Below, piece after piece: positions 10,942 through 11,949 of a stretch of 13,814 bases of DNA. The first letter of the stretch is position 1. Each line of letters opens with the position of its first letter. The position numbers were made by a program, and so were the translations under genes. The notes under the pieces are model-generated. The model worked only from the letters and a program-made list of their open reading frames with translations. It did no database searches and was not told the DNA's origin. The DNA comes from a virus. Taxonomy: Duplodnaviria; Heunggongvirae; Uroviricota; Caudoviricetes. The stretch lies in IMG/VR virus record IMGVR_UViG_641736163_000006; one strand, written 5' to 3'.

Positions 10942-11949
10942 TTATCCCCTGAAACCAGGCGGAATTTCGGTATCCGGTTCAGAAATATGATTCACACAAC
11001 ACTGTACAGGTGAACGCCCCAGGCGGATGACCAGGTCGTCCCATTTTTCGCGAAGCTTTAACGGGCTCATGATGTTTTTTACCCAGAATGGATCTCGCTG
11101 TACCCGACCAAACATTTCGCAAATTTGTCTGTGGCTTCTGCCATCCAGCATCCGCATTGTGCGCACGTCATTGGCCCATGCGGTCCAGTTTGGTTCTTTC
11201 GGTCGCGTGATCTCGCCATCATCGCTGGCAGCCTGCTCGTAAAGACTCACGATTCGTCCCCAGATCCACTGTGCGCACGCCAAATCTTCCTGACTTCCCC
11301 ACTGGCGTTTTTTCGCACTGAACACAACCGCGTCAGGGTGTCGGGTTAAAAAATCCTGTTCAGCCGTCTGCGGGTCCGGTTGCGAAGCTTCCGGACGAGA
11401 AGTGTTTTTATTCTCTGTAGTAATCTCTGTTGTATTCTCTGTAAGATCATCAGGCCATTTTGACCCGATGACATTGGGTCGTTTTGAACCAATGGAGCGT
11501 GCCATTTTGACCTCTTCCATCGTGTCATTTTGACCCGATGGAGCGGCGCATTTTGACCTGATGGATTCGCTCACTTTGCCACCATCTAAAAGCTCACTCT
11601 CGTAATTAATCGTGTAAAAATTAGTCATATCACGCTTTGATTTGTTGAGCTTTTCGCAACGCAAAAGCCCCAGCGTTTTCAGACTTGCAAATGCGCGTTT
11701 TAACGTTGACTCTGACCAGAACGGGAACTGTTCCAGCCATTGTTCTGTTGTGTTATAAATCCAGCGAACCCCGTCACATTCCATACCGGAACTGGTATCT
11801 CTCAACCAGTAATGCAACTGCTGCAACACAATGGCTTCATTTAAGCCAATCTTCATCGCAAGCTGTGTGTTTATAACCAGTGGGCGTTCAGCAAAAAGAA
11901 GGCTCATAATTCCATCCAGCTTTTTGTTGGTATTGCTGACGATACGCAT
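10942..11949 (-). CDS. Phage-type replication initiation protein (replisome-organizer / lambda O-like), with the origin iterons inside its coding sequence
   Basis: N-terminal HTH-like segment LVINTQLAMKIGLNEAIVLQQLHYWL typical of phage replisome organizers. Central low-complexity region is encoded by the iterons. Start is ambiguous: TTG at 11961, ATG at 11949 or ATG at 11907; the first ATG is reported. Confidence 0.55.
   Translation of the reverse strand: MRIVSNTNKKLDGIMSLLFAERPLVINTQLAMKIGLNEAIVLQQLHYWLRDTSSGMECDGVRWIYNTTEQWLEQFPFWSESTLKRAFASLKTLGLLRCEKLNKSKRDMTNFYTINYESELLDGGKVSESIRSKCAAPSGQNDTMEEVKMARSIGSKRPNVIGSKWPDDLTENTTEITTENKNTSRPEASQPDPQTAEQDFLTRHPDAVVFSAKKRQWGSQEDLACAQWIWGRIVSLYEQAASDDGEITRPKEPNWTAWANDVRTMRMLDGRSHRQICEMFGRVQRDPFWVKNIMSPLKLREKWDDLVIRLGRSPVQCCVNHISEPDTEIPPGFRG
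11456..11564. repeat. Five iterons (consensus CATTTTGACCcGATGG) at about 23-bp spacing: putative replication origin inside the rep gene
   Basis: Copies begin at 11456, 11481 (degenerate GTTTTGAACC), 11503, 11526 and 11549, giving spacings of 25, 22, 23 and 23 bp. An AT-rich stretch follows at about 11605-11640. Confidence 0.6.

Follow-up and report, generated by a model that had tools for sequence, protein, structure and literature searches.

Does the replication initiator gene of a lambdoid prophage contain the origin at which its own product acts? This question is raised by a stretch of 13,814 nucleotides (nt) of viral DNA (Caudoviricetes; IMG/VR record IMGVR_UViG_641736163_000006), in the following called the window, which carries an O-like initiator gene on its minus strand (Table 1). 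The initial annotation had described iterons and an AT-rich flank within this gene and had interpreted them as a replication origin resembling that of phage lambda. Judging from the comparisons presented below, we consider it quite likely that positions 11400-11586, situated in the part of the gene that codes for a linker between two protein domains, are the replication origin of the prophage. Origin activity and binding of the initiator to the iterons are both probable, and the iterons appear to match the specificity of the N-terminal domain of the initiator. The gene occurs with identical sequence in Escherichia coli FDAARGOS_1059, where RefSeq lists the coding sequence as a 'hypothetical protein' (WP_000054523.1). 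Neither Pfam nor NCBIfam has a matching model for the protein; its PHROG assignment is to family 391 ('replication initiation O-like', E 9.5e-94).

The repeats themselves are real and non-random. A repeat search of the window yielded five copies of a 23-nt unit (iterons 2-6 in Table 1), whose starts follow each other at distances of 24, 23, 23 and 23 nt in ascending coordinates, and Tandem Repeats Finder reported the same array with a period of 23. The motif search for an iteron consensus that the initial annotation had proposed gave a clear result as well: the 10-mer CATTTTGACC occurs exactly four times in the window, always inside 11456-11558, against a chance expectation of approximately 0.03 exact copies of any given 10-mer per whole window. 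A sixth, decayed copy adjoins the array in the same 23-nt register (iteron 1), and relatives possess a good copy at its position. The five iterons that had been described are therefore five good copies out of six positions in all. Their spacing, given as 22-25 bp or two helical turns, is indeed 23-24 nt, which corresponds to about 2.2 turns and not exactly to two. Each of the six 23-nt positions is a partial palindrome centred on GGTCAAAATGACC, and copies 1, 2 and 4 (counted in ascending coordinates) are imperfect palindromes of the form TCCATCGnGTCA-TTT-TGACnCGATGGA, which is the form one would expect for the site of a protein dimer.

The array covers codons 108-153, approximately, of the 321 codons of the minus-strand open reading frame, and in its successive copies the core GTCAAAATG is translated as R-S-K-C, G-Q-N-D, E-V-K-M, G-S-K-R and G-S-K-W. 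Since a period of 23 nt puts successive copies in all three frames, this is a repeat of the DNA and not of the peptide. The GSKRP and GSKWP elements, which had been read as repeats of a low-complexity linker, do occur in the translation, but no more than two of the five copies lie in that frame, so that the notion of a repeated linker peptide had to be given up. In an AlphaFold2 (AF2) model, which was built from an alignment of 10 sequences and is poor overall (mean predicted local distance difference test score, pLDDT, of 53), amino acids 104-178 are predicted to be disordered (pLDDT 25-30) and form a linker between two folded parts. The segment would therefore be free to carry DNA signals. 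The five good and the one decayed dyad-symmetric repeats thus sit between the N-terminal and the C-terminal domain, as is typical of origins of the lambda class. No structured RNA or small RNA was found in the repeats by Rfam, whose sole match in the window is sok at 8725-8891. There are no promoter-like sites in 10900-12750, the two terminator-like sites found there correspond to the chance expectation, and DnaA boxes (TTWTNCACA) have no match anywhere in the window.

For the analysis of conservation, 80 loci were recruited with conserved N-terminal peptides of the initiator, scanning one genome per species. They span Enterobacterales, Pantoea, Pseudomonas, Photobacterium, Acinetobacter, Staphylococcus, Bacillus, Limosilactobacillus, clostridia and others. 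In each whole locus (1.4-6.2 kb, most of them 5-6 kb) the strongest cluster of repeated 9-mers was sought irrespective of the position of the gene. In 31 of the 80 loci this cluster falls into the interval from +290 to +560 nt of the initiator gene, where about four would be expected by position alone (binomial p = 6e-20, with the loci treated as independent), and in these 31 loci the repeats are spaced at 23 nt or multiples of 23 nt. The iteron sequence differs between clades, with the copies agreeing within each locus: GGTCAAAATGACC is the repeat in Enterobacterales, Staphylococcus and some clostridia, GGACAATTTGTCC and GGGCAAnTTGCAC are the repeats in Pantoea and Pseudomonas, TGTGATCAA is that of Photobacterium and GGATCAAAATGATCC that of Limosilactobacillus.

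The variation between clades is informative with regard to the protein that might read the repeats. In a protein alignment of 74 homologues we compared the base X of the general iteron form GGXCAAnnTGX'CC with residue 67 of the initiator. The tripeptide 65-67 varies and directly precedes the invariant T68..R71, where the predicted second helix of a helix-turn-helix begins. Asp at position 67 goes along with X = G in all 15 loci concerned, Ser with X = T in 16 of 17 (the window has S67), and Lys or Arg with X = A in eight of ten. Differing pairings are found inside one host genus, namely in Pantoea, Staphylococcus and Cellulosilyticum, and unrelated hosts can share one pairing. This makes it unlikely that linkage alone produced the pattern, with the counts being given without correction for the phylogenetic tree. 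The covariation argues for a direct reading of the iterons by the N-terminal domain and is the best available evidence for binding of this domain to the repeats.

The N-terminal domain itself gives nothing significant in Pfam (even at E ≤ 10), NCBIfam or PDB sequence searches. Its invariant residues in 31 diverse homologues are GLNEAIVLQQ..YW, T68 and R71. The AF2 model predicts the order helix-helix-strand-strand-helix-helix-strand for it (pLDDT 65-72), and the top Foldseek matches of the model are all winged-helix DNA binders, with E-values of 0.05 or worse. The domain is therefore probably a winged helix, as far as the model goes. It defines a large family, comprising 10,326 representatives of 50%-identity clusters at E ≤ 1e-3 and 4,595 at E ≤ 1e-10. 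Some members (P0125, P0126, P0130, P0150 and others) are 400-880 amino acids long, and the domain is matched in two separate stretches of them. By analogy, these would be tandem domains like the two winged helices of plasmid Rep proteins.

For the opening of the DNA the gene offers two candidate places; its two least stable 36-mers flank the iteron array. The first is a block of three short repeats of the sequence ACAGAGAWTAC (in the following called 12-mers) just downstream of the iterons, where the sense strand reads TACAGAGAATACAACAGAGATTACTACAGAGAATAAAAAC. This motif has three matches in the 13.8-kb window, all of them in the block, and none of 200 shuffles reached three. The block has a G+C content of 30%, consists of approximately 70% purines on the sense strand and represents the least stable 36-mer of the gene (dG, the free energy of the duplex, -39.8 kcal/mol; top 2.1% of the window). 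As in the lambda class of origins, the iterons are thus directly followed by A+T-rich DNA that melts easily and is strand-asymmetric. Nearly all relatives possess 2-5 copies of the 12-mer directly downstream of their iterons. At least two are found at this place in 59 of the 80 loci, and their density is 8.9 per kb compared to 0.24 per kb elsewhere.

The codon usage of the 12-mers, which are mostly translated as T-E-N/I-T, is extraordinarily uniform. Glu is encoded in the block by GAG in 134 cases and by GAA in two, whereas elsewhere in these genes the counts are 466 and 565. Thr is encoded 293 times by ACA or ACT and once by ACC or ACG (401 versus 473 outside the block), Asn 55 times by AAT and four times by AAC, and Ile 55 times by ATT, twice by ATC and never by ATA. 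In a second codon test, for which the positions were set by the protein alignment of the 74 homologues instead of the DNA motif, the normalised codon entropy was 0-0.25 at most of the residues 156-165 and 0.42-0.64 at the two Thr positions with ACA or ACT, compared to 0.75-1.0 across most of the N-terminal domain. The synonymous sites of the 12-mers are frozen across phyla. Since GAG is kept although GAA would be more AT-rich, selection acts on the sequence and not merely on low stability. From this we suppose that the 12-mers may be recognised by a protein, either by the initiator on single-stranded DNA or by a host factor, which is the least certain part of our interpretation.

The second candidate is the upstream flank, which precedes the iterons in the reading direction of the gene and which the initial annotation had regarded as the AT-rich part of the origin. 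It is possible that the iterons bind the initiator, but that the DNA opens at this flank and the 12-mers have another purpose or none. With respect to its physical properties the flank qualifies equally well: the G+C content of 11580-11659 is 30-35%, and the 36-mer 11596-11631 has a dG of -40.1 kcal/mol (top 2.6% of the window), so that both places belong to the top 3% of the window. However, the flank encodes the conserved peptide NKSKRDMTNFYTINY at the end of the N-terminal domain, and its AT-richness is due to this N/K/Y/I/T-rich peptide. The codon entropy of amino acids 88-107 is 0.75-0.99 in the 74 homologues, i.e. the synonymous sites are free. Moreover, the 12-mers are conserved across phyla and the flank is not, and the AT-rich region of lambda follows the iterons downstream on the sense strand, at the place which the 12-mers occupy here. 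Opening at the upstream flank is therefore improbable in our estimation. The flank is AT-rich and easily melted, as had been noted, and it may help in melting; its synonymous sites are nevertheless unconstrained, and the counterpart of the lambda AT-rich region is instead the conserved element at 11400-11447, outside the interval which the initial annotation had covered.

The conservation of the DNA is also seen in a direct comparison of E. coli with Staphylococcus. Positions 2768-3010 of the Staphylococcus caprae prophage locus L051 can be aligned with 11380-11640 of the window on the DNA level over iterons and 12-mers, with iteron core and flanks of the form CCATCAGGTCAAAATGAC..CGATGGAA.AGGTCAAAATG. 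The corresponding initiator domains are less than 50% identical (40% over the matched stretch). The cis-acting DNA is better conserved than the surrounding synonymous sites, and it appears that the origin DNA of this initiator family is conserved from E. coli to Staphylococcus.

A natural deletion allele also exists. Several E. coli assemblies encode an initiator of 290 amino acids that has lost exactly 93 nt (24 + 23 + 23 + 23) in frame, as is evident from the comparison of 6268-6440 of locus L086 (E. coli GCA_054853035.1) with 11380-11640 of the window. The junction lies between two iterons, and one good iteron remains together with the intact 12-mers. In-frame deletions of similar kind have been described for ori mutants of lambda (PMC6022878), and by this analogy the allele probably belongs to a prophage unable to replicate any more. 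A homologue that retains an identical linker without the repeats would speak against a function of the DNA. The 290-amino-acid allele is no such case, because linker and repeats were lost together.

The deletion also bears on the possibility, that the repeats have no function in cis but arose by slippage or duplication in the linker, or that they are sites for an unrelated packaging, partition or repression protein. The encoded segment is predicted to be disordered, the copy number varies among relatives (4-6 iterons and 2-5 12-mers), and the deletion shows that recombination between copies occurs, all of which would fit such an origin of the repeats. Yet a period of 23 nt, which is not a multiple of three, has been kept across phyla, the codon choice is frozen, residue 67 covaries with an iteron base, and GGTCAAAATGACC is identical in E. 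coli and Staphylococcus despite the low N-terminal identity and randomised synonymous sites. We therefore give hardly any credence to this explanation.

A cis-acting role other than that of an origin also has to be considered, in which the repeats are mainly a control element (for titration, handcuffing, autoregulation or the exclusion of related phages) and the origin lies elsewhere in the phage. Plasmid iterons have double roles of this kind. Moreover, the window represents only a part of the prophage, and cloned fragments of lambda ori inhibit related phages (PMC3349717, PMC4488673). On the other hand, the iterons are adjoined by an unstable and conserved block, the layout is that of the proven lambda origin, and in the 31 loci with an array (1.4-6.2 kb) no comparable repeat cluster was seen elsewhere. 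The module of N-terminal domain, iterons and 12-mers also travels with several different C-terminal domains: the 12-mer block goes with the N-terminal domain in front of lambda-O-like, Phg_2220_C, DnaB_2 or Pfam-less C-terminal domains, of which the lambda-O-like and the Phg_2220_C type have been suggested by HHpred to be remotely related (PMC5509034). Taken together, a pure control element is very unlikely.

Some observations weigh against the interpretation of 11400-11586 as an origin operated by this initiator. Approximately 12 loci, mostly from Bacillus and Neobacillus, do not possess clear iterons inside the gene. Among them are L046, L047, L050, L059, L064, L073 and L075 (Bacillus/Neobacillus), which keep the N-terminal domain and the SES tripeptide and most of which also show no 12-mers in it. 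Possibly these loci have their origin at another place, or it has diverged past detection. The embedded-iteron arrangement is hence common in the family, but not universal. In addition, the p-values treat the loci as independent, though many of them are related. A relationship in sequence between the N-terminal domain and its lambda O counterpart is not detectable, with a probability of 0.03% in hhalign when a profile of 31 sequences was compared to residues 1-138 of lambda O. The designation of the N-terminal domain as a winged helix goes back to weak fold matches of a poor model. The 12-mers lie mostly in one frame (T-E-N/I-T), so that some constraint on the level of the peptide is possible, which would, however, not have the power to explain their frozen codon choice. 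Finally, no helicase loader is encoded beside the initiator, and the way in which the helicase arrives is conjectural.

Concerning this last point, the C-terminal half of the protein offers some clues. Its C-terminal domain is homologous to that of lambda O (BLASTP: 34% identity over 148 amino acids, E 7e-27) and is a helical bundle in the AF2 model (pLDDT 62-80). The initiator thus appears to be an O-type protein whose origin-binding domain is of another kind. In lambda, O passes the next step on to P, which binds to the C-terminal domain of O. Within approximately 20 kb to the left and to the right of the identical module in FDAARGOS_1059, and in 12 kb of the early region of phage HannyBb, the annotation contains no gene of the P, DnaC or DnaB type. 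At the position of P, directly downstream of the initiator gene, there is instead a DUF977/Ren-like gene, and the gene order in HannyBb is identical.

The absence of a P gene coincides with a peculiar C-terminal tail of the initiator, VNHISEPDTEIPPGFRG, which agrees with the end of E. coli DnaT, VNTVSEPDSQIPPGFRG, in 13 of 17 residues. This explains the label 'Primosomal protein I' in the mEp460 records. Relatives with other C-terminal domains (Phg_2220_C type) end alike, in IP[PAE]GFRG (IPPGFRG, IPAGFRG) or VPHGFRG. The tail has the appearance of a transferable peptide that docks on a replication protein of the host. According to the passages of PMC13377028 that deal with it, the C-terminal domain of DnaT docks on PriA and forms a filament on single-stranded DNA; these passages state no role for its last 17 residues. 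Because no P-type loader is encoded, we propose as a conjecture that the initiator reaches the host helicase machinery directly.

The events at the origin could then be as follows. Transcription from the promoter on the cro side would make the initiator and would also cross the origin. Dimers of the N-terminal winged-helix domain would bind to the iterons, with the helix around residues 65-71 reading the bases, and the phasing of 23 nt would wind the DNA into an O-some-like complex. The resulting strain would open the adjoining 12-mer block, and the lambda-O-like C-terminal domain, together with the DnaT-like tail, would bring in the host helicase machinery directly.

On a more general level, the N-terminal domain, the GGXCAAnnTGX'CC iterons with their fixed period of 23 nt and the 12-mers might form an ancient mobile cassette of phages of Proteobacteria and Firmicutes, in which the 12-mers are read by a protein and the helicase is obtained without a loader by means of the tail that mimics DnaT. 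We put this forward as a tentative idea, which we regard as possible rather than probable. The most plausible reader of the 12-mers would in this case be the initiator itself, on one unwound strand, and such a reading would resemble that of DnaA-trios or the binding of Rep proteins to plasmid unwinding elements. If the idea is true, the pairing of Ser with T, Asp with G, and Lys or Arg with A would constitute a simple specificity code for phage origins that can be re-engineered.

Table 1. Position of the initiator gene, its domains, the proposed origin elements and the neighbouring genes in the window
Feature	Position	Strand	Description
O-like replication initiator gene	10942-11907	-	321 amino acids plus stop; contains the whole proposed origin; open reading frame, PHROG 391
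N-terminal DNA-binding domain (putative), amino acids 1-107	11587-11907	-	conserved residues, predicted fold, covariation
Proposed recognition helix	amino acids 65-71 (SESTLKR)	-	within the N-terminal domain
AT-rich flank of the initial annotation	11587-11646		melts easily; without sign of selection on the DNA level
Iteron position 1 (gene order)	11564-11586	-	decayed, GGTGGCAAAGTGAGCG on the gene strand; GAGGTCAAAGTGACC in relatives
Iteron 2	11541-11563	-	core GGTCAAAATGCGC, translated R-S-K-C
Iteron 3	11518-11540	-	best palindrome CATCGGGTCAAAATGACACGATG, translated G-Q-N-D; 12-nt arms, 92% complementary
Iteron 4	11495-11517	-	core GAGGTCAAAATGGCA, translated E-V-K-M-A
Iteron 5	11472-11494	-	core TTGGTTCAAAACGACC, translated G-S-K-R-P
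Iteron 6	11448-11470	-	core GGGTCAAAATGGCC, translated G-S-K-W-P
Three 12-nt repeats ACAGAGAWTAC	11408-11418, 11420-11430, 11432-11442 (block 11400-11447)	-	proposed unwinding/loading element
C-terminal domain, approximately amino acids 190-296	11020-11340	-	homologous to the C-terminal domain of lambda O
C-terminal tail VNHISEPDTEIPPGFRG	10945-10995	-	13 of 17 residues identical to E. coli DnaT 163-179
CI-type repressor gene	12701-13108	+	lambdoid immunity region
Cro-like gene	12393-12623	-	Pfam P22_Cro
cII/YdaT-like gene	11888-12409	-	Pfam YdaT_toxin; PHROG 163 'CII-like'
DUF977/Ren-like gene	10494-10901	-	Pfam DUF977, E 1.7e-29; PHROG 142

The neighbourhood of the initiator gene is that of a lambdoid immunity and replication region (Table 1). 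The Cro-like and the cII/YdaT-like gene are located upstream in the same rightward-type operon (11888-12623), and transcription from the genes on the Cro side runs through the origin. The same module is present with approximately 91-92% identity in the isolated phages HannyBb, mEp460_ev081 and PhiR42_1, and HannyBb, the one phage that was aligned, has the same iterons and 12-mers as the window. This speaks in favour of the ability to replicate. The further expectation, that the element replicates autonomously once it is induced, does not follow for the prophage in the window: no P-, DnaC- or DnaB-type gene accompanies the initiator, an IS481-family element interrupts the prophage left of 8740, and the entire window is not present in any complete E. 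coli genome of the collection.

The IS481-family transposase gene (7693-8739, plus strand) adjoins the sok antitoxin RNA of a hok/sok system (Rfam RF01794, 108 bits; minus strand). Since the related prophage L001 has hokD and genes of the nin region at this place, the element marks a break in the prophage. Between hok/sok and the replication module, as in related prophages, lies a SIR2-like gene (9094-10125, minus strand; Pfam SIR2_2, weak PADLOC SIR2 matches), which is probably a prophage-borne defence gene. Further to the left, a reverse transcriptase-nitrilase defence gene (PADLOC RT_UG5-nitrilase) is split into the open reading frames 3766-5043 and 5851-7566 (both plus strand), which match the model positions 77-428 and 449-901. 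Two identical copies of IS1 (approximately 3038-3764 and 5043-5769) flank the first piece, so that the gene is almost certainly inactivated. At the left end, the open reading frame 1-2913 (minus strand) matches positions 969-1925 of the PADLOC model DruE2 with 1239 bits. It represents the C-terminal half of a Druantia DruE helicase, and the gene continues beyond the left end of the window.

What is gained by the assignment of an origin to this gene? The location of an origin inside an initiator gene has been textbook knowledge since lambda and changes no concept, so that the value of the assignment is a practical one. It provides both a function and a site of action in cis for a protein which is 'hypothetical' in RefSeq, has no Pfam or NCBIfam model and stands for a family of more than 10,000 clusters from prophages of E. 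coli, Citrobacter, Salmonella, Pantoea, Pseudomonas, Staphylococcus, Bacillus, Listeria and others. It also offers three predictions, namely the rule of one residue and one base, the sequence-specific frozen 12-mer, and the recruitment of the helicase without P by means of the DnaT-like tail. These bear on the loading of DnaB by P-less lambdoid phages and on the exchange of modules between distant hosts. We found no description of the origin of this family, of the 12-mers or of the residue-base rule in the literature, the older part of which was covered thinly, so that this is weak evidence of novelty.

Among the known systems, the origin of lambda is the closest. Lambda has four annotated iterons in codons 116-144 of O, followed by an A-rich and purine-rich stretch of the sense strand. 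The iterons of the window occupy the same codon positions (approximately 108-153), their spacing of 23-24 nt is comparable to that of 20, 24 and 23 nt in lambda, and the lambda iteron TCCCTCAAAACGAGGGA and the iteron CGGGTCAAAATGACACG of the window are both partial palindromes with an A-tract in the centre. An A-rich, purine-rich stretch of the sense strand after the iterons and the C-terminal domain (34% identity) are also common to both, and the gene order (cro, cII-like, O and then ren-like) is the same as in lambda. The lambda-like arrangement proposed in the initial annotation is strongly supported by the codon positions and the homologous C-terminal domain, to which the 23-nt array in distant homologues and the residue-base covariation can be added. 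In contrast to lambda, the initiator of the window has an N-terminal domain that is not detectably related and lacks a Pfam model, the number of iteron positions is six instead of four, and downstream of them lies not just an AT-rich tract but a sequence-specific 12-nt repeat that has been conserved across phyla. A P gene is absent, and the protein has a DnaT-like C-terminal tail.

The iteron arrays in the O genes of Stx-converting lambdoid phages differ from that of lambda in having six iterons, and these phages encode P. The initiator described here differs from theirs in its N-terminal domain and in the absence of P. The Stx-converting phages are E. coli phages that also have their origin inside O. 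Their replication regions are described as highly similar to that of lambda (PMC7466680).

A further parallel is the rep gene (ORF13) of the Lactococcus phage TP901-1, in which, as in the window, an N-terminal DNA-binding part, direct repeats and an A-rich tract are all found within the gene. The direct repeats TTTTCCAGATGTGG are present in two copies, and the record designates the product as 'replication protein, experimental'. Work by Ostergaard et al. in 2001 is said to have demonstrated that replication depends on these repeats. Between the initiator of the window and TP901-1 Rep the N-terminal domains are unrelated (hhalign probability 0.26%), and the TP901-1 gene has neither the ACAGAGAWTAC 12-mer nor the 23-nt period.

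Iteron plasmids (with the initiators RepE, pi, TrfA and RepA) share direct repeats of approximately 20 nt, a winged-helix initiator and an adjoining unwinding element with short repeats. According to what is reported of Wegrzyn et al. from 2014, some Rep proteins bind one strand of the unwinding element sequence-specifically, and by analogy such Rep-like binding to a single strand is the model that we would favour for the 12-mers. The origins of these plasmids lie outside the rep gene and usually contain DnaA boxes. In contrast, the origin proposed here lies inside the initiator gene, in a window without DnaA boxes. A homology of the initiator to Rep_3 or RepE was not seen in the Pfam, NCBIfam and PDB sequence searches, and RepE54 is among the weak Foldseek matches (E 0.7).

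The combination of an O-like protein with a DnaT motif has a precedent in DopC, a domesticated O-like protein of Cellvibrionales and Oceanospirillales, the C-terminal DnaT motif of which was recognised by HHpred against PDB 2ru8 (PMC5509034). DopC has lost its iterons, does not mark an origin and is paired with the P-derived DopE (PMC5509034), whereas in the window the iterons are intact and there is no P-like gene. The oriJ of the Rac prophage was also considered as a counterpart and rejected, as YdaU belongs to another family (DUF1376) and is followed by the DnaC-like YdaV. Overall, elements of this kind are already known from lambda, the Stx phages and TP901-1, and the family described here is a further member with unusual and testable details.

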